52,555 nt of DNA from Actibacterium sp. (GCA_016278285.1 JADQCD010000127.1:1-52555); one strand, 5' to 3'; numbered from the stretch's first letter, positions 25,477 to 42,689 are shown. Numbers and translations: made by a program. Notes: generated by a model from the letters alone, not told the origin.

Positions 25477-26292
25477 TCAGGTCGCCTGGGCGGCGAGACG
25501 CGCGGAAATGAAGTCGAACGAGCGGCCGATCGCCCGTTCTGGATCGGGCAGCGCGTGGGTTTCGGGCGCGAAGCATTCGTAAGAGATCGGACCGTCATAT
25601 CCGGCGCGTATCAGCGCCGCGATCTGGTCGACGGTGCCAAGACAATCCGTCTCGTCGACCAGCACGCGATGCGCGTCCTCCATCTGGTCCAGCGAACGGA
25701 TCGGATCGGCAACCCCCGAGATATGGACGATGCCGGTCTGCGCGGGGAAAATCGGCCCGCCCCCTGCCAGCGCGTGGTGAAAGGTGTCATGGACGATGCG
25801 GAACTGGTCGGTTCCGTCCAACGCCTCGATCGTCTCGACCAGATCGGCCTTGAAGCGCAACGACGATGTCGTGAACCCCAGCGGCTCGACCAGCGCGACC
25901 ATGCCGGCATCCTCAAGCATCGGCTTGCACGCTTTCAGCGCGATGCGCAGGTTGGCGTGGCGTTCGCCGTTGCCCAACCCGATGCCGTCGTTGCGCGGGA
26001 TCAGGCTGATCGTCTCGGCCCCTGCCGCCCGCGCGGTGTCGATCAGCGCCGCGACCTCGGCCGCGCGCGCGTCGGACCAGTCGTTAAATGGATAAACCTG
26101 GCTCAGCCCGACCAGCCGCAAGCCCTTGTCGCGGATCATGCGGCGCGCGGCGCCGGGTGGCATCCCGTCGAACAGGGGACGGTCGATATCGTTGCGTAGC
26201 TCGACTCCGACACAATCGAGCGCGGTGGCGAGGTCGAGGAACGCCTCCAGCCCCAGACCGGGCGTCGTCATGTGGTTCAATGCACGTTTCAT
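25477..26292 (-). CDS. Xylose-isomerase-like TIM-barrel protein (IolI-like inosose isomerase candidate)
   Basis: 271 aa of the AP_endonuc_2-type sugar phosphate isomerase/epimerase family (..VGVELRND...EPLGF...HDTFHH...). First gene of the minus-strand iol operon. Confidence 0.8.
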   Translation of the reverse strand: MKRALNHMTTPGLGLEAFLDLATALDCVGVELRNDIDRPLFDGMPPGAARRMIRDKGLRLVGLSQVYPFNDWSDARAAEVAALIDTARAAGAETISLIPRNDGIGLGNGERHANLRIALKACKPMLEDAGMVALVEPLGFTTSSLRFKADLVETIEALDGTDQFRIVHDTFHHALAGGGPIFPAQTGIVHISGVADPIRSLDQMEDAHRVLVDETDCLGTVDQIAALIRAGYDGPISYECFAPETHALPDPERAIGRSFDFISARLAAQAT

Positions 26293-26464: not shown

Positions 26465-27496
26465 TCAAACGATCTCGGGCAGGATCAGCCGGGGAGCCAG
26501 GAAGTGCTGCCCGATCGTCCCATCGGAGGCTTCGTCCTGCGCATGCAACATCAACTGGACCACTTCTGTGCACAATTCACGCAACGGGGTGGACACCACC
26601 ATCCGAACATAACCGTCGAGCAGCCCGGCACGGCTTTCGGTAGTTACCTCGTTGACCACCAACGCCACCTCCTCGGGGGCACGAACCTCTCGCAGGGCGG
26701 CGATGGCGCCTTCCATGCCGCCGCCGGCGACATAGATGCCGGAAAGATCGGGGTGCCGCGTCAGCAGGTCCAGCGTCGCCTCGTAGGTCAGTTGCCGCGT
26801 CTCGAGGTTCACCAGTGTATCGAGCACGGTGAAGGCGGGCGCGTTTTCCCGCATGAAGGCGCGGAACCCGACCTCGCGCAGGTCGTGCCCGTGCCAGCGG
26901 TTGCCCCCCACGAAGATCGCCACCTTCCCAGGTGTGGAACAGGTGCGGGTAATCGTCCACGCCGCCTGGCGACCGACTTTCATGTTGTTCAATCCGATGT
27001 AATTGCGCCGGATTCCCTGGGCGAAATCATTAAGCAGCGAAAACGTCGGAACCCCGGCGTCCTGCAGGTCCTGCACCACCTGGTCGAGCATTCGGTGGTT
27101 GACGGCGATCGCGGCCAGAGCATCGACCTGGCCACCGACATCGCGCAGTAACTGCGCGATTTCTCCAGGCGATTGCGACTGTGCGAACCGGATCACGGCC
27201 GTCGCGCGCACATCGCAGCGCGCAGCCGTCGCGGCCTCGATCTCGCGGCGAAAATTGCGATAGAATTCCTGCTTTTCCTTCAGCTGAACAAACCCCAGCC
27301 GGACCTCGGGCACACTGAGATCCAGCCGTTGATCGAACAACCCGCGCGCGTGATAGCCAATGCGGTGTGCTGCCTCGGCGATCTTGCGCATCGTCTCTTC
27401 GCGCACCGTGACACGACCGTTGAGCGCCCTGTCGACGGTGGACATGCTGACCCCCGCCTCGCGGGCGATATCCTTGATGGTGGCGCGGCGGGCCAT
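26465..27496 (-). CDS. LacI family transcriptional regulator (candidate inositol regulator)
   Basis: 343 aa. N-terminal HTH (ATIKDIAREAGVSMSTVDRALNG) plus a periplasmic-binding-like effector domain. Close paralog of 37101..38126. Confidence 0.9.
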   Translation of the reverse strand: MARRATIKDIAREAGVSMSTVDRALNGRVTVREETMRKIAEAAHRIGYHARGLFDQRLDLSVPEVRLGFVQLKEKQEFYRNFRREIEAATAARCDVRATAVIRFAQSQSPGEIAQLLRDVGGQVDALAAIAVNHRMLDQVVQDLQDAGVPTFSLLNDFAQGIRRNYIGLNNMKVGRQAAWTITRTCSTPGKVAIFVGGNRWHGHDLREVGFRAFMRENAPAFTVLDTLVNLETRQLTYEATLDLLTRHPDLSGIYVAGGGMEGAIAALREVRAPEEVALVVNEVTTESRAGLLDGYVRMVVSTPLRELCTEVVQLMLHAQDEASDGTIGQHFLAPRLILPEIV

Positions 27497-27661: not shown

Positions 27662-28684
27662 ATGGCCGTTACCCTGCAGGACGTGGCCCGCAAGGCCGGG
27701 GTCTCCAAATCTGCCGCGTCGCGGACCTTCACCGACGGGGCATCGGTTTCAGCGCACACCCGTGCCAAGGTCGAGGCGGCGGCGCTGGCGCTCGGATATA
27801 GCCCCAATGCCCTGGCCGCCGCGCTGACCACCGGGCGGACCAAGTTGATCGGGCTGATTTCAAACAACTTTTCCAACCCCTATTTTCTGGAGATCTTCGA
27901 TCGTTTTACCCGCGCCATCCAGGACGCGGGCCTGCGCACCCTTCTGGTAAACCTCAGCACGGAAGAAGATGCCGACCGCTCACTGCAGATGCTGCGTCAA
28001 TACAACGTCGACGGCGTGATCGTCGCCTCGTCGACCCTCCCGCCCAGCTTCGCATCCGCGTTCCAGCAGGCCGGGCTGCCCATCGTCCACGCCTTCGGCT
28101 GGTCAGCGACCGAACCGCGCACCGCGCTGGTCAGCATCGACAACGTCGAAGCCGGACGAATGGCTGCACGAACTCTGCTGGCTCGGGGCTACACCCGTAT
28201 CGGGTTCCTGGGCGGTCCAGAAAAGGCCGCCACCACCCAGGATCGCCTGGCCGGCCTGGACGAGGGGCTGCGCGCCATCGGCCTGACGCCCGATCGCGCC
28301 TTTGCCACAGCTTATGCCTACGACGCGGGACGTGATGCGATGGCGCGGATCCTGACCGGCCGCAATCCAGCCGAGGCTTGGTTCTGTGGTGACGACGTCA
28401 TCGCGCTTGGTGCCATGAGTGCAGCCCATGAGGCCGGTCTGAGAATTCCAGACCAGATCGGGTTTCTCGGGCTAAACGATATGGCGATGGCCGCCTGGGA
28501 GCGTCATGCCCTTACCACGATCCGCCAGCCGCTGGCCGAGATCGTGGACGAGGCCGTGGCGGCGATCCGCGCACGGATCGATGCCCCCGACAGCTCGATC
28601 GAGATCAGGCGTTTTCCTTGCGAGATTGTCGAGCGCGCCTCGCTGCGCCCGCTACTGCACCCCGAGCCAGCGCCGGGGGCGTGA
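27662..28684 (+). CDS. LacI family transcriptional regulator
   Basis: Real start at ATG 27662 (MAVTLQDVARKAGVSKSAASRTFTDG...), 340 aa. Divergent from the other LacI gene. Confidence 0.9.
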   Translation: MAVTLQDVARKAGVSKSAASRTFTDGASVSAHTRAKVEAAALALGYSPNALAAALTTGRTKLIGLISNNFSNPYFLEIFDRFTRAIQDAGLRTLLVNLSTEEDADRSLQMLRQYNVDGVIVASSTLPPSFASAFQQAGLPIVHAFGWSATEPRTALVSIDNVEAGRMAARTLLARGYTRIGFLGGPEKAATTQDRLAGLDEGLRAIGLTPDRAFATAYAYDAGRDAMARILTGRNPAEAWFCGDDVIALGAMSAAHEAGLRIPDQIGFLGLNDMAMAAWERHALTTIRQPLAEIVDEAVAAIRARIDAPDSSIEIRRFPCEIVERASLRPLLHPEPAPGA

Positions 28685-28748: not shown

Positions 28749-29912
28749 TCAGTCGCCGCGAAACATCGGCGGACGCGCGTCGACCCAGGCGCCCTCGGTC
28801 GCGCCGCTTTCAGCGACCGAGGCCACCGCCGCCATCGAGCGCAGGCCATCCTCGGCCCGGGGATAGAGGTCGGCGGCCGGATCCGTCTCGCGGCCCTCCT
28901 TGCGGGCGTGAATCGCCTCGGCCAGGTCGAGATAGATGTTGGCGAAAGCCAGCGGCATGCCTTCGGCATGTCCGATGGCGACGCGGGTGGTGCGATCGGC
29001 CGCGGGCGACAGGTTCGCCTCGCCCCGCTCGATCACTTGCCGTCGTCCGCCCAGCGGCATCCACGACAGCTGGTTGGGCTGTTCCTGCGCCCAGGCAAGC
29101 CCGCCCTTTTCGCCGAAAACCTGCAATGTCAACCCATGCTGGCGGCCCAATGCAATCGAAGAGGTCCACAGCCGGCCGACCGCGCCGCCATCGAAGCGCA
29201 GGTTGACCATGGCATCGTCTTCAAGCTGCCGGGTTTCGATACATGACACCGTGTCGGCGGACAGCCGGCTGACTTCCTGACCGATCACGAAGCTGGCCAT
29301 GTGCAGCGCGTGGATGCCGCAATCTGCGAACTGCGCAGATACGCCGGCCTGCTGCGGATCATAGCGCCAGCGCACCCGCGGATTGTCGGCATCCGCCGCA
29401 TCGGCGTGGTGGCCATGCGCAAACTCGGCCTTGACCATGCGGATGCGGCCCAGATCGCCGCGCGCCACCATCGCGCGCATGTGCCGTACCAGGCTGTAAC
29501 CGGTATAACCATAATTCACCGCGCAGATGCGGCCCGTGGCGCGGGCGGTGGCCACGATATCCTCTCCCTCGGCCACGGTCATGGTCATCGGCTTTTCGCA
29601 CAACACATGAAAGCCGGCTTCAAGGAACGCCTTGGAAATCTCGTAATGTGTGAAATTGGGCGTGGCCACGGTAACAAGATCGACGCGGTCGTCGCGCGCC
29701 ACCTCGCCCGCCAGCATCTCGCGCCAATCACCATAGGCGCGATCCGCAGACAGGCCCAGCCGCTGCGCATAGGCGCGGCCGGCCTCGGGACGGTGATCCA
29801 GCGCGCCGGCGACGAACTCGAACTGTCCGTCCAGCCTCGCGCCCAGCCGGTGGGCCGGCCCGATCTGGCTGCCTTCGCCCCCGCCGATCATGCCCCAGCG
29901 AAGTTTCGTCAT
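28749..29912 (-). CDS. Gfo/Idh/MocA family oxidoreductase
   Basis: Real start at ATG 29912 (MTKLRWGMIGGGEGSQIGPAHR...CEKPMT...), 387 aa. Confidence 0.88.
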   Translation of the reverse strand: MTKLRWGMIGGGEGSQIGPAHRLGARLDGQFEFVAGALDHRPEAGRAYAQRLGLSADRAYGDWREMLAGEVARDDRVDLVTVATPNFTHYEISKAFLEAGFHVLCEKPMTMTVAEGEDIVATARATGRICAVNYGYTGYSLVRHMRAMVARGDLGRIRMVKAEFAHGHHADAADADNPRVRWRYDPQQAGVSAQFADCGIHALHMASFVIGQEVSRLSADTVSCIETRQLEDDAMVNLRFDGGAVGRLWTSSIALGRQHGLTLQVFGEKGGLAWAQEQPNQLSWMPLGGRRQVIERGEANLSPAADRTTRVAIGHAEGMPLAFANIYLDLAEAIHARKEGRETDPAADLYPRAEDGLRSMAAVASVAESGATEGAWVDARPPMFRGD

Positions 29913-29965
29913 GTCCTCGATCCTTTCCTGATCCTGCGGGGTAGTCCCGTTCCTGCCCGGTCGGC

Positions 29966-30856
29966 TCAGAACCCGATGCGCTCCAGATAAGCCCGGTTGG
30001 CCCGCGCATCGTCCAGCGGCGCCACGTCGAGCGTGGGGTCGCAATCCTGTTCGACAGTGCACCAGCCCGCGAAACCGGCTTGCATCAAGGCCTCGCGCAC
30101 CGCGGGGAAATCCACGTCACCCGCCCCCAGATTGCAGAAAATGCCCTGTCCGCAGGCGGTATAGAAATCGGTTCCGGCGGCAACGACCTGCGCCTTCACC
30201 TGCGGGTCGATATCCTTGAAGTGGACATAGCTGACACGGCTTCCCCAGCGCCTCAGGAACGCCACCGGATCATAGCCGGCATAAGAGTGATGGCCGGTGT
30301 CGAGGCATATCTTCAGCACGTCCGCATCGGTTTCGTTCAACAGGCGCTCCAGTTCGGGCTCGAAGTCGATGAACCCGCCGGCGTGGGCATGAATGCTGAC
30401 GGTCAGGCCATAGACCTCGGCGCCTGTGGACGCGATATAGGAAATGCGATCCCGGAAGGCGGCCCATTCGGCGGGTTGCATCTGCTCGGCTGCACTGGCG
30501 CGCCCAGCGGTCGGCGCCCGGCGCGACGAAATCGAATCGATCAGCACCAGATGACGCGCCCCGTGCGACACCAGCGACCGGCATGTCCGTTCGGCCGCTT
30601 CGACCACGTCCAGCCACTGGTCCGGGTCATGGAACGGGCGAAAGACGACACCGCCCGTCAGCGTCAGACCATTGGCGGCCAGCGCCTCGCCCAAGACCGC
30701 CGGATCCTCGGGCATGTACCCCACCGGACCCAGCTCGATCCCGCGATAGCCGGCGGCGGCGCATTCGGCCAGAACCTGCCGCCACGGCGGGTTGCGCGGA
30801 TCATCCGCGAATTCGACTCCCCAGGAACAGGGTGCGTTACCGATGCGAATGGTCAT
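29966..30856 (-). CDS. Xylose-isomerase-like TIM-barrel protein (IolE/MocC-like sugar phosphate isomerase/epimerase family)
   Basis: 296 aa: MTIRIGNAPCSWGVEF...GIELGP...HAHAGG...LDTGHH...VHFKD...EQD. It has the metal-binding pattern typical of this fold. Confidence 0.85.
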   Translation of the reverse strand: MTIRIGNAPCSWGVEFADDPRNPPWRQVLAECAAAGYRGIELGPVGYMPEDPAVLGEALAANGLTLTGGVVFRPFHDPDQWLDVVEAAERTCRSLVSHGARHLVLIDSISSRRAPTAGRASAAEQMQPAEWAAFRDRISYIASTGAEVYGLTVSIHAHAGGFIDFEPELERLLNETDADVLKICLDTGHHSYAGYDPVAFLRRWGSRVSYVHFKDIDPQVKAQVVAAGTDFYTACGQGIFCNLGAGDVDFPAVREALMQAGFAGWCTVEQDCDPTLDVAPLDDARANRAYLERIGF

Positions 30857-30867
30857 GGCATTCTCCC

Positions 30868-31971
30868 TCAGGCTGTCTCGACGGCGATCCAGCGCTTGTC
30901 CCCGGCCGATTTCATCGCCGCTTCGACCACCTGTGCCACGGCAAGGCCGTCGGCGAAGGTGGGCCAGACGGGCGCGCCGGTCTCGATCGCGGTCAGGAAA
31001 TCGCGCGCCTCGATGATGATCTGGTCCTGGTATCCGGTGCCGTGCCCGGCCCCCTGGCAGAAGGCGGCATAATCGGGATGCTCAGGCCCGATCAGGATCT
31101 TTCGAAAACCGCGTGTCGCCGCCGGGCCCGCGGCCTCGTACAGCCACAGCGCGTTCTGGTCTTCCTGGTCGAAGCGGATGGCACCGCGCGTGCCGAAGAT
31201 TTCGTAGGCATATCCCATCTTGCGGCCGGTCGCGATGCGGCTGGAATAGATGTGCCCCATCACGCCGCTCTCGAACCGGCACATGATCTGGGCGTGATCG
31301 TCGTTCGTCACGTTGCCGCCGGGGCGAGTCGCGTGGACGGTTTCGATATCGGCACAGACCCGGGCGATCGGCCCCATCAGCGCCAGCGCCGCGTTGATCG
31401 GGTGCGGGGCCAGGTCGCCCATGTTGCCGTTGGCCGCGCCGGAACATCGCCAGTCGTGCGGCGCGGCCGGATCGGACAGGAAATCCTCGGTGTGCTCGCC
31501 ACGATAAAAGGTGACGTCGCCAATTGCGCCCTCGGCCAACAGATGGCGGGCGAACTGGCTGGCGGGCGTTCGGATATAATTGAACCCGATCATGTTTGCC
31601 ACGCCGGCCGCCCCGGCCGCTGCAACCATGGCACGGGCGTCGGACAGCGTGTCGGCCAGCGGCTTTTCGCACAGCACGGGTTTGCCCAGGGCAAACGCCG
31701 CCTCGGCGATGGCGCGATGGGTTTCCTGCGGCGTGGCGATGACGACGGCCTGCACCTCGGGATCGGCGACCAGGGTCTGCCAGTCCGGCGCGGCCCGGCG
31801 AAACCCGAAGGACGCACGATAGCGTTCGGCGCTATGGGGGCTCGACGCCGCGACCATTTCAAGGCGGGGGCGCAGCGTGGTTTCGAACACCGCGCCCACG
31901 GCCGCAAAAGCCACCGCATGCGCCTTGCCCATATACCCGCCACCGACGATCCCGATACCGAGTTCTGCCAT
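30868..31971 (-). CDS. Gfo/Idh/MocA family oxidoreductase
   Basis: 367 aa: MAELGIGIVGGGYMGKAHAVAF...CEKPLA... Confidence 0.88.
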   Translation of the reverse strand: MAELGIGIVGGGYMGKAHAVAFAAVGAVFETTLRPRLEMVAASSPHSAERYRASFGFRRAAPDWQTLVADPEVQAVVIATPQETHRAIAEAAFALGKPVLCEKPLADTLSDARAMVAAAGAAGVANMIGFNYIRTPASQFARHLLAEGAIGDVTFYRGEHTEDFLSDPAAPHDWRCSGAANGNMGDLAPHPINAALALMGPIARVCADIETVHATRPGGNVTNDDHAQIMCRFESGVMGHIYSSRIATGRKMGYAYEIFGTRGAIRFDQEDQNALWLYEAAGPAATRGFRKILIGPEHPDYAAFCQGAGHGTGYQDQIIIEARDFLTAIETGAPVWPTFADGLAVAQVVEAAMKSAGDKRWIAVETA

Positions 31972-31996
31972 GATCCCCCCATCCGTTCAACGGACC

Positions 31997-32012
31997 TTGC
32001 AACCGGTTGCAA
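31997..32012. promoter_or_regulatory. Perfect 16-bp palindrome, candidate LacI-type operator
   Basis: TTGCAACCGGTTGCAA is fully self-complementary. It lies in the 93-bp divergent intergenic region, 26 bp from the oxidoreductase ATG and 53 bp from the iolC-like ATG. Confidence 0.5.
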
Positions 32013-32064
32013 AAGCCGTATCGTGAGCGGCGATGGGTCGCAACAGCAAATTGGTCACAACCGC

Positions 32065-33045
32065 ATGGCAAACCTTGGACAACTTGAGGGCGGATCGTTT
32101 CTGGTGATCGGACGGGCGGGTATGGACCTTTACGCCGATCCGCCTGGCACACGCCTGGAGGACGCCACGCAATTCACCGCCGCGCTTGGCGGATCGTCGG
32201 CCAATATCGCCGCGGGGCTGTGCCGGCAGGGATGCGACGCGGCGCTGGTCACGCGTGTCTCGGACGACGCGGTGGGCCGCTTCTGCCTGGCGCAGCTCGA
32301 TGCCTATGGGGTCGATCGGCGTTTTGTCGCGGTCGAGGGCGGCGAGGCGCGCAACTCCCTGGCCATTGTCGAGACGCGGGCGACCGACACGCAGGCAGTG
32401 CTGTATCGCCACCGGGCCGCTGATTTCGAGATGGTCGAAGCGGACGTGACGGCCCTGTCCTATCACGCGTATTCGGCACTGATCACCACTGGCACAGTGC
32501 TGGCCGCCCAGCCGTCGCGCGATGCCTGTTTCGCGGCGTTCGACCAGGCCTGCGCCGCAGGCCTGCCGCTTGTTTTCGACGTCGATTACCGGCCTTATTC
32601 TTGGACGTCGCAAGAAGAGGCGGCCGAGGTCTATGCCCGCGCCGCGGCGCTGTGCGACATCGTGATCGGCAACGACGTGGAATTCGGCGTGATGGCCGGA
32701 GATCACGACGCCGGCCTCGAAACCGCACGCGCGCTTGTTGCCGGCGGCGCCCGCGTCGTTGTCTACAAGATGGGCGAGAAAGGGGCGGTCACGATCACGC
32801 CCGAGGGCGAGATGCGCACCGGCATCTACCGCTCGCAGGCGATCAAGCCGACCGGCGCGGGCGACGGCTTCATGGCCGGTTTTCTGGCCGGCCTCGCTGA
32901 CGGCCACGACGTGGCCGAGGCAGTCGCGCGCGGTTCGGCCGCTGCGGCGCTGGTGGTGTCGCGCGTCGGCTGCGCCCCGGCCATGCCCACGGCGGCCGAG
33001 ATCGACCGTTTCCGCGCCACTACCGAAATGACACCCCCCGCTTAG
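32065..33045 (+). CDS. PfkB family sugar kinase, IolC-like (5-dehydro-2-deoxygluconokinase candidate)
   Basis: Real start at ATG 32065 (MANLGQLEGGSFLVIGRAGMDLYADPPG...; PTGAGDGFMAG), 326 aa. The upstream 490 aa of ORF 30583..33045 are antisense to other genes. Confidence 0.85.
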   Translation: MANLGQLEGGSFLVIGRAGMDLYADPPGTRLEDATQFTAALGGSSANIAAGLCRQGCDAALVTRVSDDAVGRFCLAQLDAYGVDRRFVAVEGGEARNSLAIVETRATDTQAVLYRHRAADFEMVEADVTALSYHAYSALITTGTVLAAQPSRDACFAAFDQACAAGLPLVFDVDYRPYSWTSQEEAAEVYARAAALCDIVIGNDVEFGVMAGDHDAGLETARALVAGGARVVVYKMGEKGAVTITPEGEMRTGIYRSQAIKPTGAGDGFMAGFLAGLADGHDVAEAVARGSAAAALVVSRVGCAPAMPTAAEIDRFRATTEMTPPA

Positions 33046-33054
33046 GAGGCGACC

Positions 33055-33909
33055 ATGCATATTCTCCCCCATGACAACGCCAATCGCCCGATCGTCGATG
33101 TCGATAACGACCGGGTGCCGCTGAACTATTTCAACATAGTCAAGCTGAAGGCCGGCGAGCATTTCGATTATCGGGTCGATGGCTACGAGACCTGCGTGGT
33201 GCCCGCCACCGGCACCGTCACCGTCGAGGTCGGCGACCAGACCTTCGCCGATATCGGCCAGCGCCGCACCGACGTCTGGGACGGCGATCCCGAGGGCGTC
33301 TATGTCCCCAGCGGACAGGGCGCGCGCATCACCGCGCGCACCGATACCGAAACCTTCGTCGCCGGCGCGAAATACGCCGACACGCTGACGCCCTTCGCCG
33401 TGCGCGCGGACGACCTGGACCTGGTGCAATACGGCTCGGACGACACCAAGACACACCGCAAGATCAAGCACATCCTGGGCGCGGAACATCACGACCGGGT
33501 CGGTCGGCTGCTGGTCAGCGAGTTGTTCACCGTTGGCGCCGGCGGCTGGTCGGGCTTTCCCAGCCACAAGCACGACACCGACCGGCTGGACAGCGACGCC
33601 GAGGTGATCGAGACGCGCCACGACGAGACCTACAATTTCCGGTTCAAACCGGACTATGGATCGGGGCTCCAAATGCTGCAACGCACCGACAACGAACCCG
33701 GCGATGCGTATCACGTCATGAACGGCTCGACCGTGCTGATCGACAAGGGGTATCATCCCTGCTGCGTCCTGCCCGGCTACGAGATGTATTATTTCACCAT
33801 CCTCGGCGGACGGTCGCAGCGGTCGCTGAAACAGTATTTTCAGCCCACCCACGCCGAACAGTTGCACACCATCCCCGGCATCATGGACATGGTGGCCAAG
33901 TTCAAATGA
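33055..33909 (+). CDS. IolB-like cupin (5-deoxy-glucuronate isomerase family), divergent second copy
   Basis: 284 aa: ..WSGFPSHKHDTD...ETYNFR...IDKGYHPCCVLPGYEMYYFTILGG. It shares the IolB signature but differs strongly from the 14430..15242 copy. Confidence 0.85.
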   Translation: MHILPHDNANRPIVDVDNDRVPLNYFNIVKLKAGEHFDYRVDGYETCVVPATGTVTVEVGDQTFADIGQRRTDVWDGDPEGVYVPSGQGARITARTDTETFVAGAKYADTLTPFAVRADDLDLVQYGSDDTKTHRKIKHILGAEHHDRVGRLLVSELFTVGAGGWSGFPSHKHDTDRLDSDAEVIETRHDETYNFRFKPDYGSGLQMLQRTDNEPGDAYHVMNGSTVLIDKGYHPCCVLPGYEMYYFTILGGRSQRSLKQYFQPTHAEQLHTIPGIMDMVAKFK

Positions 33910-34739
33910 CCCGCGCGACCCTGGCCGAGGTTCTGGCGCCCGCCCTGCGCGACGGCCATGCCGTGGCCGGGCTGGTCTGTCAGGGGTGGGAGGACGCGCG
34001 CGCCTATGTCGCGGCCGCCGAGGCCGAAGCCGCCCCGGTGATCCTACAGGTTGGCCCCGGCGCCCGGGCGCACATGCCGCTGACCGTCTGGGCGGCGATG
34101 CTGGCCGAATTGGCCGGGGCAGCCAGCGTCCCGGTGGTGCTGCATCTCGACCACGGCACCAGCGCCGAAGACTGCCGGGCCGCCATCGACCTCGGCTTCA
34201 CTTCGGTGATGTTCGACGGCTCGGCCCTGCCGCTTGAGGACAACATCGCCCAGACCCGCCAGGTGGCTGCCATGGCAAGGGACGCGGGCGTTTCCTGCGA
34301 GGGCGAGATCGGCATCGTCGGCTATGCCGGCGGAGCCAGGACAGAGGGAACCGACCCGGACGAAGCGGCGCGCTTTGCCGCCGAAACGAGCATCGACGCC
34401 ATGGCCGTGTCCGTCGGCAACGTGCATCTGCAACAGACACGGCAGGCCAGAATCGACCACGACCGGCTGAGCGCGATCGCCGAACGCACCGGCGTGCCGC
34501 TGGTGATCCACGGCGGATCCGGTCTGTCGCACGACATGCGCCGCACGCTGGCGCGGACCAGCCCGGTATGCAAGTTCAACATCGGCACCGAGTTGCGAAT
34601 ATGCTTTGGCCGGGCCTTGCGCGATACGCTGACGGACGATCCGGCGCTATTCGACCGAATCGCCATTCTTTCGGCGACCGAACCGGTGCTGACCGACACC
34701 GCCCGCAGGATCATCGCCGGGCTGCGCCACCCGACCTAG
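33906..34739 (+). CDS. Class II (metal-dependent) ketose-bisphosphate aldolase family, IolJ-like
   Basis: 277 aa: ...VVLHLDHG...MFDGS...GEIG...VGNVHL...IHGGSG... (FbaA/IolJ/KbaY family motifs). ATGA overlap with the iolB-like stop. Confidence 0.85.
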   Translation: MTRATLAEVLAPALRDGHAVAGLVCQGWEDARAYVAAAEAEAAPVILQVGPGARAHMPLTVWAAMLAELAGAASVPVVLHLDHGTSAEDCRAAIDLGFTSVMFDGSALPLEDNIAQTRQVAAMARDAGVSCEGEIGIVGYAGGARTEGTDPDEAARFAAETSIDAMAVSVGNVHLQQTRQARIDHDRLSAIAERTGVPLVIHGGSGLSHDMRRTLARTSPVCKFNIGTELRICFGRALRDTLTDDPALFDRIAILSATEPVLTDTARRIIAGLRHPT

Positions 34740-35542
34740 CGTGGGTCGAGCCCGTCCAGGAAGGCGTCGAACGCCGCGTCTTCGATCGGGACCGCGTGGT
34801 CGCACGCGGGATAGGCCCCGCTGGCTACATCGGCGACGAATTCCGAAAACGCCGCCGTGCGTTCCTGATGCAGCCGCGCGAATTCAGTGGCAAAATCGCG
34901 ATAGACCTTGGCGTGACGCGGCGCGCGCGTCCGCCCATAGCCCAGCAGATCCTCGGTGAACAGATACTGCGCATCCGTATGCGGCCCGGCGCCCATCCCC
35001 AGAAGCAACAACCCGCTGTTGCGCGCGACAACCTCGGCAACGCGGTCGGGGACGACCTCGATTTCGGCCCCGAAACACCCGATCTGCTCCAGGCGCGTGA
35101 CGTGATCCCACACCTCGCGGGCGCTGGCGGCGGTCTTGCCCACCGCCTTGAACCCGCCGGTCCAGGTCGCCTGCGAGGGGATCAACCCGACATGGCCGAC
35201 CACCGGAATCGCATTGTCACCCAACAGTTTCTGGATATCGAGCGCGGCCGCACAGTATACGCAATCGCCACCATTTTGCATCGCGGCATGGGCCGCGCGC
35301 AAGTAATCTCCGGCGGTGCAAAGCTCGCCATACAGCAGACCGATCTGCACGAAACACGACCCCGCCGCCGCGCGCATCGCCGGGCTCCAGCGCGGCGCGG
35401 CGATCGACAGCATATCGACACCGGCGGCGGCGGCGGCGCAGGCCTCGTCCTCGGTTTCGACATAGACCATGGTCAGTTTCTCACCCCGCGCCTTGCGCGC
35501 GCGCAAGTCGGCAACGGTGGGGCGCCCGACCGTTTCTGGCAT
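34736..35542 (-). CDS. PanB (3-methyl-2-oxobutanoate hydroxymethyltransferase) family protein, divergent
   Basis: Real start at ATG 35542 (MPETVGRPTVADLRARKARGEKLTMVY...IPVVGHVGLIPSQATWTGGFKAVGK...LLLLGMGAGPHTDAQYL...), 268 aa. The overall PanB layout is recognisable. I could not recognise the canonical GDS(L)GM segment (it reads DMLSIAAPRW here). Confidence 0.75.
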   Translation of the reverse strand: MPETVGRPTVADLRARKARGEKLTMVYVETEDEACAAAAAGVDMLSIAAPRWSPAMRAAAGSCFVQIGLLYGELCTAGDYLRAAHAAMQNGGDCVYCAAALDIQKLLGDNAIPVVGHVGLIPSQATWTGGFKAVGKTAASAREVWDHVTRLEQIGCFGAEIEVVPDRVAEVVARNSGLLLLGMGAGPHTDAQYLFTEDLLGYGRTRAPRHAKVYRDFATEFARLHQERTAAFSEFVADVASGAYPACDHAVPIEDAAFDAFLDGLDPR

Positions 35543-35544
35543 TC

Positions 35545-35853
35545 TTAGACCTCCACCAGGACACGGCCGCCGTCGACCTTCGTCGGATAGGTCGCCAGGT
35601 TGACGCAGGCCGGGGCGCGCTTGGCCTCGCCGGTGCGGTAATCGAAGGTGGCGTTGTGCTTGGGGCACTCGATCTCGTAATCCATCACCAAACCGTCCGC
35701 CAGATGGACCTGTTCGTGGGTGCAAAGCCCGTCTGTGCAGAAAAAGTCGCCATCGGGACTGTGATAAATGGCGAAGGTCCGGCCGTCGTGATCGAAGCGA
35801 ACCAGATCCTCTTGCTCGATCTCGTCGGTGGCGCAGGCGTCGATCCAGGGCAT
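35545..35853 (-). CDS. Rieske [2Fe-2S] ferredoxin (MocE-like)
   Basis: 102 aa with CTH...CPKH cluster ligands. ATG at 35853 is preceded by AAGGAGGA at 5-nt spacing. An alternative ATG at 35880 overlaps the upstream stop (ATGA). Confidence 0.85.
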   Translation of the reverse strand: MPWIDACATDEIEQEDLVRFDHDGRTFAIYHSPDGDFFCTDGLCTHEQVHLADGLVMDYEIECPKHNATFDYRTGEAKRAPACVNLATYPTKVDGGRVLVEV

Positions 35854-35876
35854 GTCATCCTCCTTTTGGATAGTGG

Positions 35877-36959
35877 TCATTCGGCGGGCACGCCCACCGG
35901 GACGGTCGCGTGCAGATCCGCGCGATAGGGTTTGGCGGTGTCCGGCAGGGTGCGCTTGATGAAATGATCCTCGTCGCGCAACTGGCGGACCAGGGCGGGC
36001 CACATCTCGGCGAAGGCCTCGGGGATGGACCGGTTGGGCGCCGGCAGGTCATGCTTGATCGCCTCATGCAACTGGGGAAGCCGATGATAGGGCACCATCG
36101 GAAACATGTGATGTTCGACGTGGTAATTCATGTTCCAATAGATGAAGCGGCTGATCGGGTTCATCAGGACGGTGCGCGAATTCAACCGGTGATCGGTGAC
36201 ATTCTCGGCCAGCCCTCCGTGCTGCAACACCCCCGTCATGACATGGTGCCACGCGCCATAGAGCCGCGGCAGCCCTATCAACATCAGCGGCAGGATCGAG
36301 TTCAGAGCAAACGCCATCGCGATCACCGTGGCATAAATCGCCACCCAGATGCGGGCCACGCGGATCACCTTGGGCTGCTCGGGCCTGGGCACGAAATCCG
36401 CCTCGTCCGGCGTCAGCCGCCCGGTCGCATTGGTCAGCATGCGGCCTATGGCGGTCCAGGCGTCCACCAGACCGAAGAAATTGGCTATTACTCGTGCCAG
36501 CGCCGGCGGCCGCATCAGCACCACCTCGGGGTCGCGCCCGACGATAACCGTGTCGGTGTGGTGGCGGGCATGGGACCAGCGCCAGGTATGCGGGTTACGC
36601 ATCATGCAGAAGCTGGCGATCTGGTACAGCCAGTCGTTGTAGGAACGGGTCTTGAAGGCCGTGCCGTGACCGCATTCGTGCCAGCGCGAATCCATCGCCG
36701 AGCCGTAAAGCACCCCGTAGCCAAGCCAGAACGGCACCGACCACAGCGTGGGCCACAGAACGATCCCGAACCCTGCCAGCACGATCATCGAGGCGAACAG
36801 GATGGCGGTGTCTCGGATCGCCGGGCCGTTCGTTCGTTTCATCAGATCCTTCATCGTCTTGCGCGGCAGGTCGGTGTGATACCAGTCCGCCGCGGCCAGC
36901 CCGGTCTGCACAGCCCACGCGGAGTCGGGGCCGGTCATCGAATAGTCACGCTGGGTCAT
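35877..36959 (-). CDS. Membrane fatty-acid desaturase/hydrocarbon oxygenase family di-iron protein (MocD-like)
   Basis: 360 aa with three histidine boxes (HECGH, HARHH, NYHVEHH) and hydrophobic segments between them. Confidence 0.85.
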   Translation of the reverse strand: MTQRDYSMTGPDSAWAVQTGLAAADWYHTDLPRKTMKDLMKRTNGPAIRDTAILFASMIVLAGFGIVLWPTLWSVPFWLGYGVLYGSAMDSRWHECGHGTAFKTRSYNDWLYQIASFCMMRNPHTWRWSHARHHTDTVIVGRDPEVVLMRPPALARVIANFFGLVDAWTAIGRMLTNATGRLTPDEADFVPRPEQPKVIRVARIWVAIYATVIAMAFALNSILPLMLIGLPRLYGAWHHVMTGVLQHGGLAENVTDHRLNSRTVLMNPISRFIYWNMNYHVEHHMFPMVPYHRLPQLHEAIKHDLPAPNRSIPEAFAEMWPALVRQLRDEDHFIKRTLPDTAKPYRADLHATVPVGVPAE

Positions 36960-37100: not shown

Positions 37101-38126
37101 ATGGCCAAGCGCCCCACCCTGCAGGACCTGGCCCGGGAGGCCGGCGTGGGCATCGCCACCGTCGACCGCGTTGTGCACGGCCGACCTCATGTCAGCGTGC
37201 AAACGGCGGACCGGGTGGCCGCCGCAGCCGAACGGATAGGCTATCACGTCGGTGGGCGCATCGCAGCGCGGCACGGCCCCGCGCCGCGACGCATCCGGCT
37301 GGGGATCGTCCTGCACAAGCAGGCGCAGCCGTTCTATCGCGCCTTTGCCTCCGCGCTTGAAGTTGCGGTGGCTCGCATTGACGCACGCGTCGATTCGCGC
37401 ATCGTCTATGCCCCCTCGCAATCGCCCGAGGATTTTGCCGCAGCCTTGCGCGAAGTGGCCGAGGACGCGGATGCCATCGCTGGTTCGGCGGTCAACCACA
37501 CCGCCGTGGACACGGCAGTGCGCGAATTGACCGCCGCCGGTCTGCCGGTCTTCGCGCTGCTCAACGATTTCGCCCAAGGCGCGCGGACGGCGTATTTCGG
37601 CCTCGATAACATGCGTGTCGGGCGCATCGCCGGATGGATGCTGGCCACCTTGATCCGGCAACCCGGAAACGTCGCGGTTTTCGTGGGCGGCAATCGCTGG
37701 CACGGGCATGTCCTGCGTGAGATGGGCTTTCGCGCCTGCCTGCGCGAGCGGGCGAGCACGCTTCAAGTTCTGGAGACGAAGGTCAACCTTGAGACGCGGC
37801 AGGTCACTTACGAGGCGACGCTGGACCTGTTGGATCGTGTCCCCGACCTGCGCGGTCTTTACGTCGCGGGCGGCGGCATGGAGGGTGCGATCGGGGCGCT
37901 GCGCGAGACCCGTCCGCCCGGCCGAGTGATGCTGGTCGTGAACGAACTGACGCCCGATAGCCGCGCGGCGTTAGCCGACGGTTATGCTGTGCTGGCAATC
38001 GCCACCCCGCTCGAGGCTCTGTCCCGGAGTCTTGTCGCAGCGATGCTGAGCGCCGCCAAAGGCCAGCCCCCTACGACGGATCGCCACATCTTTGAGCCGC
38101 AGCTGTATCTGCCGGAGTCGGTCTGA
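37101..38126 (+). CDS. LacI family transcriptional regulator (paralog of 26465..27496)
   Basis: 341 aa. HTH PTLQDLAREAGVGIATVDRVVHG. Shares long identical stretches with the other regulator (VAIFVGGNRWHGH, VNLETRQ.TYEATLDLL, YVAGGGMEGAI.ALRE). Confidence 0.9.
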   Translation: MAKRPTLQDLAREAGVGIATVDRVVHGRPHVSVQTADRVAAAAERIGYHVGGRIAARHGPAPRRIRLGIVLHKQAQPFYRAFASALEVAVARIDARVDSRIVYAPSQSPEDFAAALREVAEDADAIAGSAVNHTAVDTAVRELTAAGLPVFALLNDFAQGARTAYFGLDNMRVGRIAGWMLATLIRQPGNVAVFVGGNRWHGHVLREMGFRACLRERASTLQVLETKVNLETRQVTYEATLDLLDRVPDLRGLYVAGGGMEGAIGALRETRPPGRVMLVVNELTPDSRAALADGYAVLAIATPLEALSRSLVAAMLSAAKGQPPTTDRHIFEPQLYLPESV

Positions 38127-38509: not shown

Positions 38510-39538
38510 CTATTCGAAGGTCTTGAGATAGGCGATCACGGCGTCGCGATCGGCCGCGTCGCTCAGGCCGCGGAAGGCCATTCGCGTGCGGCTGACATAG
38601 TCGCGCGGGTTTTCCAGGAAGGCGTGCAGCGCCTCTTCGTCCCAGACCTGCCCCTCTTCGCCCATCGCGGCCATCGCGTTCGAATAGCGAAAACCGTCTA
38701 CCGTGCCGATGGTCCGGCCCACGACACCGTTCAACTGCGGGCCCACCCGGTTCTTGGCGCCCTCGCCGACCATGTGACAGGCCTTGCACTGGCGGAACAC
38801 GTCTTCGCCCGCAGCGACCAGTTCAGGGTCCGGACTGGCAGGCGCGGCCGGTTCCGGCGCGGCCGAAGCGTCCTGCTGTTCCTCGGCGGCCTCCTCGTCG
38901 GTCTGCGTGCCCGGCGTCACGTCCAGAACCGAGGCATGCATGGTGATCTCGACACTGTCCTTGCAATTTTCCATGCAGGGTTCCTTGACGAATTTCGGAA
39001 ACTCCACCTCTTCGCGGTTGTCCACGATGAACCCGTCGGCATTCGGCATCTCGACATCCAGGAAATTCTCGTTCGAAAGAACGAAGTCGCTGTCCACCAG
39101 GAAGTTGGAATAAAGGATGTAGGCCGTGATTGCATAGGTCTCGTCGACGGTCAGCGTCTGCGCGTTGCCGAACGGCATAGAGCGGTGAACATAGTCCCAG
39201 GCCGTCGACAGGTAGGGCCAGTAAGAACCGACCGTCTTGACCGGGTCGCGGCGGTCGAGCGTGCCCATCCCGCCGGCAAGTTTCGGCCAGCGGCCGACCC
39301 CTTCGGCAAATTCGCCATGGCACGCCGCGCATTTCTCGACGAACAGGGTTTCCCCTTCGCTCACCGAACCCGACCCGGCGGGCAGTCCGGTGCCGTCGGG
39401 ACTGACATCCAGGTTCCATGCGGCGATTTCTTCGGGCGTGGCGGGACGTCCCAGGCCATATTCCTGGGCCATCGCCGGGCCGGCCACCAGTGCAGAGGCC
39501 AGCGCAGCACCGATCACCAGGTTACGATACTTCGACAT
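38510..39538 (-). CDS. soxD: Sulfane dehydrogenase diheme cytochrome c subunit
   Basis: Real start at ATG 39538 (MSKYRNLVIGAALASALVAGPAMA signal peptide). Two CxxCH motifs (CAACH, CKACH). Overlaps the soxC end by 17 nt. Confidence 0.9.
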   Translation of the reverse strand: MSKYRNLVIGAALASALVAGPAMAQEYGLGRPATPEEIAAWNLDVSPDGTGLPAGSGSVSEGETLFVEKCAACHGEFAEGVGRWPKLAGGMGTLDRRDPVKTVGSYWPYLSTAWDYVHRSMPFGNAQTLTVDETYAITAYILYSNFLVDSDFVLSNENFLDVEMPNADGFIVDNREEVEFPKFVKEPCMENCKDSVEITMHASVLDVTPGTQTDEEAAEEQQDASAAPEPAAPASPDPELVAAGEDVFRQCKACHMVGEGAKNRVGPQLNGVVGRTIGTVDGFRYSNAMAAMGEEGQVWDEEALHAFLENPRDYVSRTRMAFRGLSDAADRDAVIAYLKTFE

Positions 39539-40799
39539 TCTCGGCCTCCCCGTTCGGCTTGACCCACCAGGTCTGGATGCCGTTGTTGTGGTAGATGGAA
39601 TTTTCGCCCCGGATCGCGCGCAGCGCATCCTTGGTCGGCTGGACATAGCCCAGGCTGTCCATGGCACGACTTTGCAGCAGCATTTCAGATCCGTCCCAGT
39701 CGATCTCCAGGTAGAACCGGCTGACCGCCTTGTTCTGCCCGGGCGCGGCAAGGCGCGCGGTCTGCCAGTTCTTGCCGCCGTCGATCGAGACATCGACCCG
39801 CTCGATGGCACCGCGGCCCGACCAGGCCAGCCCTGTGATAACCAGCGGACCGGCGCCGTGGGTGATCGGTGACTGCGGGCTGGGCGAGGTAATGATCGAT
39901 TTCGCGTCCATCTCCCAGGTCCATTTGCGCGAGGTTCCGTCGGCCAGCGTGTCGGTGTATTTGCTGGTCTCTTCGCGGCTTTCCACGGGGCCGTCCATCA
40001 CCTCGACGCGGCGCAGCCATTTGACCCACATGTTGCCTTCCCAACCGGGAACGACCAGGCGCACGGGATAGCCATGTTCCTTGCGCAGCGCCTCGCCATT
40101 GGCCTTGAAGGCCACCAACACGTCGTCGAGTGCCTTGTCCATCGGGATCGACCGGCCGTTCGACGAAGCATCGGCACCCTCGACATAGATCCACTTCCCG
40201 CTCAAATCACCGGCGGCATCCAGTCCGGCCTCTTCCAGCAGGGTGCGCAGAGGCACGCCGGAATATTCCATGTTGTGGATCATGCCGTGCGTGAACTGCG
40301 CGCCGTTCAACTGCGCCCCGGCCCATTCCATCCCGCTATTGGCGGCGCATTCGCAGAAATAGACGTGGTTTTCGCGCGGGAACCGCTCCAGGTCGGCATA
40401 GGTGAAGACCAGCGGCCGGTCGACCAGGCCGTTGATCATCAGCCGGTAATCTTCCTTCCGCAGCTCGATCGCGCCCGAATGGTGCCGTTCGAAGGCGCAA
40501 CCCTGCGGGGTGATCGTCCCGTCCAGCGCGTGGATTGGCGTGAAATTGACCGAGCTCAGGGTCTCGGCCGTGAGCCAAGGCACGTTGCGCCGGATCACGT
40601 CGTCCTCGAACTTGATTGGCAGGCCATAGGGCACGGCATCGACCCCAACGCCGGTATAGCGCGCCCAGGGCTGAACCTCGGTGATAAGCGGATCGCCCGC
40701 GGCACGGGCCGCCCCGGCCGTGGCAACTGTGCCCCCCGCGGCGAGCCCTGCTTGCAGAAAGCCGCGCCGGGTGGTCGAGGATCCTGACTGATCTGTCAT
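39522..40799 (-). CDS. soxC: Sulfane dehydrogenase molybdopterin subunit
   Basis: Tat signal TRRGFLQAGLAAGG and a sulfite-oxidase-family Moco domain. Lies between soxB and soxD. Confidence 0.93.
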   Translation of the reverse strand: MTDQSGSSTTRRGFLQAGLAAGGTVATAGAARAAGDPLITEVQPWARYTGVGVDAVPYGLPIKFEDDVIRRNVPWLTAETLSSVNFTPIHALDGTITPQGCAFERHHSGAIELRKEDYRLMINGLVDRPLVFTYADLERFPRENHVYFCECAANSGMEWAGAQLNGAQFTHGMIHNMEYSGVPLRTLLEEAGLDAAGDLSGKWIYVEGADASSNGRSIPMDKALDDVLVAFKANGEALRKEHGYPVRLVVPGWEGNMWVKWLRRVEVMDGPVESREETSKYTDTLADGTSRKWTWEMDAKSIITSPSPQSPITHGAGPLVITGLAWSGRGAIERVDVSIDGGKNWQTARLAAPGQNKAVSRFYLEIDWDGSEMLLQSRAMDSLGYVQPTKDALRAIRGENSIYHNNGIQTWWVKPNGEAENVEVS

Positions 40800-40867
40800 A
40801 TCTGCAACCTCCTCAAAAGATGCATCACTTTATATTCGCATCTCAGAATATGTAAATCGGATTTCGT

Positions 40868-42559
40868 TCACGCACCCGTGACCTTGACCGATTTGTTCGG
40901 ATCGACCTGAACGGTGCCCTGCTGCTTGATGTAGCTTTCCACCACATCCCATATGGCCGGCCCCTCGGTGCCTTCATTGACCGAGGCCCAGCCGGCCACG
41001 ACATAGCTGCGCTCTGGCGCGATCGGTTCGCCGGTCTTCAGCAGGGTCATGCCGCTGATGCGGTTGCCCCGCTCCGCGCGCACGTCGATATGATAGCCCA
41101 TGCCGCCAACACGAACCATGTCCCCGCCCTGCTGATAATAGGGGTCGGGGTGGAACAGGTTGTCGGCCACATCTTCGAGGATCGTCTTCAGCGTCTCGCC
41201 GGTCATCTCGGAGCGATAGGCCTCCGGATAGGTCATTGCCGTGGCGTTGAACAGATCCTCGCGGGTGATCGGCTCGCCCGGCAACAGGCTTGGCCCCCAA
41301 CGGAAACCGGGCGACAAGGCGATCTCGGCCTCGCGCTCGTCGATAAGCGCGTTGCAGATCAGATCGTCCCATGTGCCGTTGAAATTGCCGCGCCGATACA
41401 ACAGGGTGTCGGTGGTCCCCAGCACCTCGTCCAGCTCGGCCTGGAACGGTGCGCGCTGCTTCTCGATCAGCGCGGCCACATTCTTGTCAGGCTCGATCAC
41501 GTCGGAAAAGATCGGGATCAGCTTATGCCGGAATCCCATCAACTGCCCGTCCCGGACGTCCAGATCAAGCCGCGTGACGAATTTGCCGTTCGAGCCGCTG
41601 GCGATCAGCATCGTGTCGCCCACCATGACCGGCTCGGGCAGAGCGTCATGGGTGTGGCCGGTCAGGATCACGTCGATCCCCTTGATCTGCCCGGCCATCT
41701 TGCGATCCACGTCAAAGCCGTTATGCGACAGAACCACCACCAGGTCGGCGCCCGCGTCGCGCACCTCCTGCACCAATTCGGCCATCCGTTCGTCACGGAT
41801 GCCAAAGCTGAGTTCGGGGAACATCCAGTCGGGATTGGCGATCGGCAGATACGGGAAGGCCTGACCGATCACCGCGATCTTCGCACCGCCCCGCTCGAAC
41901 ATCTTGTAGGGCTCATAGGCGGGTTCGTCCCAGGTCGCGTCGAAGATATTGGCGCCCAGGAAAGGGAAGTCGAGCCCGGCCACGATCTCGTTCACCCGCT
42001 CGGTGCCCAGGGTAAACTCCCAGTGCGACGTCATCGCGTCGGGTTTCAGGGCGTCCATGACGTTGACCATGTCCTGCCCGGCCGTCTTGAGCGTGGTGTA
42101 GGAGCCGTGCCAGGTATCGCCGCCGTCCAGCAGCAGCGCATCCGGTCGGTCGGCGCGGATCGCGTTCAACACGGTGGCCACCCGGTCCAACCCGCCCATC
42201 TTGCCATAACTGCGCGCCAGCGCGACAAAATCCAGGTAGGTCAGCGCATAGGCATGGGGCGTGCCCGGCTTCATGTCGTAATAGTTCAGAAACTCCTGCC
42301 CCGTCAGGTGCGGTGGCTGCCCCCGCGCCGCACCGACGCCGATATTGATCTCCGGCTCGCGGAACCATATCGGCTTCAGCTGGCCGTGAATGTCGGTTAC
42401 ATGAACCAGGGTCACGTTGCCGAACGTGTCGAAGTCAAGCAGTTGATCCTGGGTCAATGCCTGCTGGGCCGCCAGTTTCGACCAGTTGCCAACACCCGAA
42501 GCGCCATAGATGGCCGAGGCCGCGACCGTCGCCTGAAGAAAATCTCGCCGCGATATCAT
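40868..42559 (-). CDS. soxB: Thiosulfohydrolase (dimanganese 5'-nucleotidase-like)
   Basis: 563 aa. Tat signal MISRRDFLQATVAASA and metallophosphoesterase motifs (VHVTDIHGQ, GGDTWHG, GHTH). Confidence 0.95.
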   Translation of the reverse strand: MISRRDFLQATVAASAIYGASGVGNWSKLAAQQALTQDQLLDFDTFGNVTLVHVTDIHGQLKPIWFREPEINIGVGAARGQPPHLTGQEFLNYYDMKPGTPHAYALTYLDFVALARSYGKMGGLDRVATVLNAIRADRPDALLLDGGDTWHGSYTTLKTAGQDMVNVMDALKPDAMTSHWEFTLGTERVNEIVAGLDFPFLGANIFDATWDEPAYEPYKMFERGGAKIAVIGQAFPYLPIANPDWMFPELSFGIRDERMAELVQEVRDAGADLVVVLSHNGFDVDRKMAGQIKGIDVILTGHTHDALPEPVMVGDTMLIASGSNGKFVTRLDLDVRDGQLMGFRHKLIPIFSDVIEPDKNVAALIEKQRAPFQAELDEVLGTTDTLLYRRGNFNGTWDDLICNALIDEREAEIALSPGFRWGPSLLPGEPITREDLFNATAMTYPEAYRSEMTGETLKTILEDVADNLFHPDPYYQQGGDMVRVGGMGYHIDVRAERGNRISGMTLLKTGEPIAPERSYVVAGWASVNEGTEGPAIWDVVESYIKQQGTVQVDPNKSVKVTGA

Positions 42560-42640
42560 GTTCGTCGTCTCCGTTCAGGATGCACCGCGCCGAGCGGCGA
42601 ATGCAGGGCATCGGCCGATCGGCACGCTTTGGGGTAAAGG

Positions 42641-42682
42641 AACAAACGAATGAAAACCGCGCGCCGGCAATCCGGCGCGCGG
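42641..42682 (-). terminator. Canonical intrinsic terminator or attenuator between soxA and soxB
   Basis: On the coding (minus) strand: CCGCGCGCCGG-ATTG-CCGGCGCGCGG, a perfect 11-bp stem, followed directly by TTTTCATTCGTTTGTT. It begins 8 nt after the soxA stop. Confidence 0.55.
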
Positions 42683-42689
42683 CGGTCGA

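Follow-up and report, generated by a model that had tools for sequence, protein, structure and literature searches.

We analysed a stretch of 52,555 nucleotides from Actibacterium sp. (GCA_016278285.1, JADQCD010000127.1:1-52555; hereafter the window) that carries two sets of inositol-catabolic (iol) genes. Module 1 is a complete iolG-C-D-E-B operon. Module 2 (positions 28,749 to 34,739) consists of iolC2, iolB2, and a class II aldolase gene on one strand and, divergently, genes for two Gfo/Idh/MocA oxidoreductases (MocA-a and MocA-b) and a triosephosphate isomerase (TIM) barrel protein (TIM2). Module 2 is very likely a paralogous inositol-catabolic set, the local version of an iol divergon that is standard in Rhodobacterales, here without iolD and iolG, and most likely handles the same intermediates as module 1. 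The arrangement is an ordinary pathway in mosaic form, and the operon is of a known, widely annotated type whose iolD-less form is common.

Gene identities were taken from Pfam and curated NCBIfam models, with equivalog cut-offs as given by NCBI. The six genes listed in the initial annotation are real and correctly placed, three on the minus strand and three divergently on the plus strand (Table 1), and all six reading frames are intact. The plus-strand genes are as close to overlapping as had been described, with a gap of 9 nucleotides between iolC2 and iolB2 and an overlap of 4 nucleotides between iolB2 and the aldolase gene; the gaps on the minus strand are 11 and 53 nucleotides. The iolC2 start, read from the sequence, is the ATG at 32065, and start refinement placed that of MocA-a at the ATG at 29912, discarding an upstream GTG. 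Neither iolD nor iolG lies within 28749-34739, so the module is not a self-contained iol operon. The annotation had said as much, noting the missing IolD. The whole genome (322 contigs totalling 3.1 Mb, with a completeness rating of 100%) has a single IolD, that of module 1 (IolD1); its other thiamine diphosphate enzymes reach at most 179 bits in the IolD-model search.

The IolB1, IolE1, IolC-DUF2090, and IolG1 proteins of module 1 each pass the NCBI cut-offs. Protein by protein, the counterparts in the two modules are 28-34% identical, and by this measure the two modules are ancient paralogues. These values bear out the earlier view that the two IolB copies are very different and did not arise by recent duplication. 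The further statement that only the cupin core motifs match was too narrow, since IolB2 and IolB1 align across 244 residues at 30% identity.

Gene content across the Rhodobacteraceae

Two surveys placed module 2 among its relatives. One sampled a single genome per genus from 151 genera of Rhodobacteraceae; the other took in the 20 kb or so surrounding IolB2 in each of 59 sampled genomes and 80 named loci, onto which the window proteins were mapped. The same divergon is carried by 139 related loci, 117 of which have enough flanking DNA for counts of gene content. Close relatives of IolB2 number in the thousands within the family, and the closest named ones (including Salibaculum, Marivita, and Amaricoccus) are 82-88% identical and all annotated as 5-deoxy-glucuronate isomerase. 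Orthologues of IolB2 (65-88% identity) occur in about 59 of the 151 sampled genera, with proteins of the IolB1 type (about 30%) forming a separate group in a bimodal distribution. Scores on the IolD model likewise divide IolD into two groups, at about 880-930 and about 770-810 bits, with a few proteins between them at about 810-820. The high-scoring group adjoins IolB1, as read from coordinates. Members of the lower-scoring group lie about 1 kb from IolB2, and those in the related loci are 44-50% identical to IolD1.

The recurrent layout of the divergon is a LacI gene, then MocA-a, TIM2, and MocA-b on one side of a divergent promoter/operator region and iolD, iolC2, iolB2, the class II aldolase, and in some cases iolG on the other. 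MocA-a is present in 109 of the 117 loci, and the aldolase gene directly follows iolB2 in 114. In 71 loci iolD lies between the divergent promoter and iolC2, and 40 of these also have iolG after the aldolase. The remaining 46, to which the window belongs, have neither iolD nor the trailing iolG.

Five near-complete genomes (G088, G111, G063, G034, and G005) carry this operon as their only set of iol genes. If these operons work, the IolE, IolB, IolC, and IolJ steps must fall to TIM2, IolB2, IolC2, and the class II aldolase, because no other set is present. All five genomes have an IolD. In each, the IolE model has one full-length match, also its best, which is the TIM2 orthologue (179-182 bits), and none of them has a DUF2090 aldolase. 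A further genome, G066, has an IolD of the high-scoring group but no IolB or IolC other than IolB2 and IolC2; there the IolB family model finds the IolB2 type alone. In nineteen additional sampled genera with iolD in the operon, a query with the IolB2 protein found no IolB1-type gene at E <= 1e-20; this is weaker evidence, because the same query missed the IolB1 of genome G120.

The components of the two iol types are freely mixed across genomes. In G149 (C1) and G056 (loci L028 and L034), IolB2 alone follows the divergent oxidoreductase trio, with iolC2 and the aldolase gene absent there; the only IolC-type kinase lies elsewhere and an IolD-IolB1 pair at a third site, so that the pathway is fully dispersed. 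G052 and G042 have a complete operon of the module 2 type plus a lone pair of PhyH and IolB1 genes. Among sampled genera with an iolD-less module, 22 of 23 have IolD elsewhere in the genome, the exception being a genome that is 70% complete; by our count, about 35% of genera without IolB2 have IolD.

Table 1. Features of module 2 and related genes in the window
Feature	Position	Strand	Model match or context
LacI-B, LacI-family regulator, likely repressor of module 2	27662-28684	+	LacI helix-turn-helix, Peripla_BP_3/1
MocA-a, Gfo/Idh/MocA oxidoreductase	28749-29912	-	PF01408, PF22725, PF02894
TIM2, IolE-like TIM barrel of xylose-isomerase fold, probably inosose dehydratase	29966-30856	-	PF01261
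MocA-b, Gfo/Idh/MocA oxidoreductase similar to Paracoccus scyllo-inositol dehydrogenase (LgdA)	30868-31971	-	303 bits to 5YA8
TTGCAACCGGTTGCAA, 16-bp perfect palindrome, putative LacI-type operator	31997-32012		93-bp divergent intergenic region
iolC2, 5-dehydro-2-deoxygluconokinase (PfkB, unfused)	32065-33045	+	TIGR04382
iolB2, predicted divergent 5-deoxy-glucuronate isomerase (KduI/IolB cupin)	33055-33909	+	PF04962, 257 bits
Class II (metal-dependent) aldolase, predicted IolJ-type 2-deoxy-5-keto-gluconate-6-phosphate aldolase	33906-34739	+	PF01116, 247 bits
iolD1 of module 1	17586-19394	-	TIGR04377, 897 bits (above 715)
5' part of methylmalonate/malonate-semialdehyde dehydrogenase gene (iolA/mmsA-like), cut by contig end	51986-52555	+	TIGR01722 positions 3-192, 223 bits

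Model scores agree with these assignments to different degrees. IolC2 aligns with TIGR04382 from model position 4 to 308 of 309 and, at 316.7 bits, passes the equivalog cut-off of 300, and the best solved relative of TIM2 is an IolE (3CNY). The class II aldolase reached none of the fructose-bisphosphate aldolase or tagatose equivalog models in NCBIfam. In favour of an IolJ role, fitness data from random-barcode transposon sequencing (RB-TnSeq) singled out PGA1_c07220, an IolJ-like protein important to Phaeobacter inhibens on myo-inositol, as the aldolase for use of that compound (PMC9007349), and IolB2 orthologues are present in Phaeobacter. PGA1_c07220 and the module 2 aldolase are both IolJ-like, a comparison that stands at the level of family description, and no P. 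inhibens entry is among the best 120 aldolase homologues listed. MocA-a reached no NCBIfam equivalog, and its best solved relatives are unannotated structural-genomics oxidoreductases (3V5N, 7D5M, and 3DTY).

Among solved structures, MocA-b is closest to the Paracoccus laeviglucosivorans scyllo-inositol dehydrogenase Pl-scyllo-IDH, or LgdA (5YA8), matched over 353 residues, with about half of the aligned residues identical as judged by eye. In that enzyme K106, D191, and H195 are catalytic, while R178 and H318 of the neighbouring subunit bind substrate (PMC5969746); all five residues are identical in the aligned MocA-b. The Paracoccus enzyme favours scyllo-inositol (Michaelis constant 3.7 mM) and also oxidises myo-inositol (PMC5969746).

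Operator, regulators, and selection on the iolD-less form

Neither the window nor the rest of the genome holds a second exact copy of the palindrome TTGCAACCGGTTGCAA. Of 125 related loci, 108 carry it unchanged and ten more have it with one mismatch, always at the same position and whether or not iolD is present. The loci span many genera, and non-coding conservation as strong as this is rarely seen. An orthologue of LacI-B adjoins the MocA-a gene in most related loci, and LacI-B probably represses module 2 through TTGCAACCGGTTGCAA, a pairing of regulator and operator suggested by their equally conserved positions. A scan of the divergent region for promoter and terminator consensus sequences gave no match. 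One further copy of TTGCAACCGGTTGCAA with a single mismatch, on contig C318, was set aside as chance: it lies inside overlapping reading frames, and such matches occur at the level of the reversed-pattern control.

Two other LacI-type regulators, both with a LacI helix-turn-helix and Peripla_BP_4, are encoded in the window. One (26465-27496, minus strand) lies on the transporter side of module 1 and the other (37101-38126, plus strand) beside a MocD/E-like operon. They are 53% identical to each other, and LacI-B is only 26-28% identical to them.

A FastTree phylogeny of concatenated IolC2, IolB2, and aldolase sequences (120 rows) indicates that iolD has come or gone repeatedly, with at least seven changes on well-supported branches and eleven by parsimony. 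The window falls in a clade of eighteen rows with 99% support, all without iolD and from several genera. Within this clade the ratio of nonsynonymous to synonymous substitution rates (dN/dS) is 0.04-0.28 for all six genes (0.12-0.28 against Salibaculum and 0.04-0.21 in the within-clade comparison), similar to that of neighbouring module 1 genes. These low values indicate that module 2 is maintained and is no remnant. TIM2 is present in 36 of 46 iolD-less loci versus 69 of 71 with iolD, and MocA-b is absent from nine of the 46. The more frequent loss of these two genes where iolD is missing fits partial redundancy with module 1.

Alternative readings and a proposed pathway

The initial annotation had proposed that module 2 may act on some other cyclitol or sugar acid through a route independent of IolD. 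A pathway of this kind for a substrate other than inositol (a sugar acid, a levoglucosan-like compound or 3-keto-glycoside, or a hexuronate by way of KduI and KdgK) would account for the missing IolD, for the scores of IolB2 and TIM2 below their equivalog cut-offs, and for the best NCBIfam match of MocA-b, which is to levoglucosan dehydrogenase. That match reaches only 279 bits (103 bits for MocA-a) against a cut-off of 650, and the match of MocA-b to 5YA8 is stronger. For the hexuronate version, named in the annotation as an alternative, the KdgK models give 66-104 bits against cut-offs of at least 400, whereas IolC2 passes its IolC cut-off; no KduI-specific model matched IolB2, and only the IolB model matched the cupin. 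On these model scores both the levoglucosan and the hexuronate versions were rejected. The proposal of an IolD-independent route also conflicts with the orthologous operons, most of which carry iolD, and often iolG, behind the same operator, with the five near-complete genomes in which the operon is the only iol set, and with the near-constant company of an IolD elsewhere in iolD-less genera. We regard it as very improbable. Less credible still is the idea that module 2 is a decaying, non-functional remnant left by the loss of iolD and iolG. The absence of those genes and the piecemeal losses in related iolD-less loci (TIM2 in 10 of 46, MocA-b in 9 of 46, and iolC2 with the aldolase in G149 and G056) would suit it, but the six frames are intact, the operator is exact, and the iolD-less clade spans many genera; the dN/dS values together with the frames led us to reject it.

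A closer competitor, which we nonetheless consider unlikely, is that module 2, where a genome has both modules, is kept as a specialised branch for other inositol isomers or derivatives: scyllo-inositol by way of the LgdA-like MocA-b, chiro-inositol, or O-methyl-inositols released by the neighbouring MocD/MocE-like oxygenase operon. It would either channel these into scyllo-inosose or take on an epimeric 5-deoxy-uronate from the shared IolD. It draws on the resemblance of MocA-b to scyllo-inositol dehydrogenase with its key residues kept, on purifying selection despite a complete module 1, on the common retention of both IolB types beside one IolD, and on the module's own regulator and operator. 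The convergence on module 2 of an operon for a MocE-family Rieske protein and a desaturase-like oxygenase, a linkage that recurs in relatives, points the same way. Against this, there are genomes with an iolG-containing operon that have no lower pathway besides IolB2, IolC2, and the aldolase, which argues that these handle ordinary myo-inositol intermediates. The free mixing of components between the two iol types and the more frequent loss of TIM2 or MocA-b without iolD also speak against a dedicated branch. A narrower version, in which genomes with two modules keep the iolD-less one for a distinct branch (scyllo- or chiro-inositol, or O-methyl-inositols demethylated through the adjoining oxygenase operon, perhaps by way of an epimeric 5-deoxy-uronate from the shared IolD), seems to us quite unlikely; were it true, the two lower pathways would be stereochemically, and not merely genetically, distinct.

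Several observations weigh against assigning module 2 to the ordinary pathway. IolB2 matches TIGR04378 end to end but at 158.3 bits, under the equivalog cut-off of 205 (IolB1 scores 343 bits), and TIM2 likewise matches the IolE model TIGR04379 end to end at 178.7 bits, under the cut-off of 290 (IolE1, 379 bits). Because both fall short, their exact activities are read from context, and those of IolC2 and the aldolase are likewise predictions. Both IolB types occur in 37 sampled genera, and by our count 27 of these have a single IolD. Together with upkeep under purifying selection across the eighteen-row iolD-less clade, where pure redundancy predicts decay, this hints at some non-redundant role.

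On balance, the comparative evidence points toward redundancy with module 1, an outcome that the initial annotation had set against its own proposal. If module 2 is indeed an iolD-less copy of the ordinary set, inositols would enter by the ATP-binding cassette (ABC) transporter of module 1. IolG1 would convert myo-inositol to scyllo-inosose, and the LgdA-like MocA-b would probably do the same for scyllo-inositol. The inosose would then be dehydrated by IolE1 or TIM2, and the single IolD1, which we infer to act in trans for module 2, would open the ring to 5-deoxy-glucuronate, the presumed supply for both lower pathways. In one, IolB2 would isomerise this product, IolC2 would phosphorylate it, and the class II aldolase would cleave it to dihydroxyacetone phosphate (DHAP) and malonate semialdehyde; in the other, IolB1 and IolC1-DUF2090 would yield the same two compounds. 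The malonate semialdehyde would pass to the IolA-like dehydrogenase at the end of the window. Module 2 would in this way form a second, separately regulated lower pathway with extra entry dehydrogenases, and what it contributes may be an entry point for scyllo-inositol or independent control. Both lower pathways may be kept for the sake of separate regulation, for dosage, or to serve other isomers.

For annotation, an iolC-iolB-aldolase set without iolD should prompt a search for an unlinked or neighbouring IolD before an incomplete pathway or new chemistry is proposed. It is also of some interest for pathway evolution that two non-homologous lower inositol pathways are mixed across the Rhodobacteraceae around a single IolD. 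The LacI operator is invariant in more than 100 loci, and together with its regulator it would lend itself readily to regulon prediction or to building an inositol-responsive switch.

Surroundings of the module and comparison with known systems

The operon that converges on the aldolase gene (34736-36959, minus strand) codes for a fatty-acid-desaturase-like oxygenase, a MocE-family Rieske ferredoxin, and a divergent PanB-like protein. The ferredoxin scores 171 bits, above the MocE family cut-off of 136. The linkage of this operon with the iol island recurs in loci of Salibaculum, Salipiger, Loktanella, and Cypionkella, and in genomes G049 and G102. A role of module 2 in methyl-inositol use is possible, because a MocD/MocE-like oxygenase operon adjoins it here and in relatives, though nothing requires such a role.

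The iolA/mmsA-like gene at the 3' end of the window appears to be split between two contigs, as TIGR01722 positions 277-477 are matched at the start of contig C85 (C85:3-614); the island therefore probably continues on C85. Between iolE1 and iolB1 lies a PhyH-family (phytanoyl-CoA dioxygenase-like) gene (15436-16617, minus strand) without an NCBIfam match. Its orthologues accompany iol genes elsewhere, as in the lone PhyH-IolB1 pairs of G052 and G042 and beside operons of the module 2 type in G088, G123, L099, and L110. A third TIM barrel of xylose-isomerase fold (25477-26292, minus strand) is encoded upstream of the genes for the ABC transporter of module 1. Like the PhyH-family protein, this barrel has no NCBIfam match, shows no similarity to IolE1 or TIM2 detectable by BLASTP, and is kept with the transporter in relatives; it could be an IolI/IolH-like inosose isomerase. 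The island is adjoined by a sox cluster (38510-43550) with genes for a SoxD-like cytochrome c, a SoxC molybdopterin protein, a SoxB-like protein of the 5'-nucleotidase family, and SoxA.

Module 2 can be set beside several known systems. MocA-b resembles Pl-scyllo-IDH/LgdA across the aligned length and in the five key residues, from which its activity is predicted. The rhizopine moc genes (MocA, MocC, MocD, and MocE) have matching families in module 2, with its Gfo/Idh/MocA oxidoreductases and an IolE/MocC-like TIM barrel, and in the convergent operon, with its MocE-family Rieske protein and desaturase-like oxygenase, a likeness at the family level; unlike the moc loci, the orthologues of module 2 sit in ordinary iol operons. 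The Rhizobium/Caulobacter-type iol operon, represented here by module 1 with its IolC-DUF2090 fusion, runs through the same reactions, and IolD, IolG, IolA, and the transporter would serve both modules. It differs in protein sequence to the extent given above, and the aldolases are unrelated (DUF2090/LacD-like versus class II). The lower pathway of Bacillus subtilis, with its class II aldolase IolJ (PMC9007349), uses the same three families as module 2 (IolB, an unfused PfkB IolC, and a class II aldolase) and not the IolC-DUF2090 fusion. Module 2 departs from it in an IolB2 below the cut-off, a LacI-type regulator, another gene order, and the divergent oxidoreductase trio.

The closest counterpart is the iol divergon of marine Rhodobacterales, whose proteins are 55% to 88% identical to those of module 2. 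The loci on the Ruegeria sp. TM1040 megaplasmid (NC_008043, TM1040_RS02140-RS02180) and on Marinovum algicola pMaD8 are annotated with iolD, iolC, and iolG labels, and the pMaD8 aldolase is annotated as 5-keto-2-deoxy-D-gluconate-6-phosphate (DKGP) aldolase. Both loci have the same nine-gene layout and orientation, the LacI neighbour, and the 16-bp operator. They differ from the window copy in carrying iolD between the operator and iolC and a trailing iolG, neither of which module 2 has.

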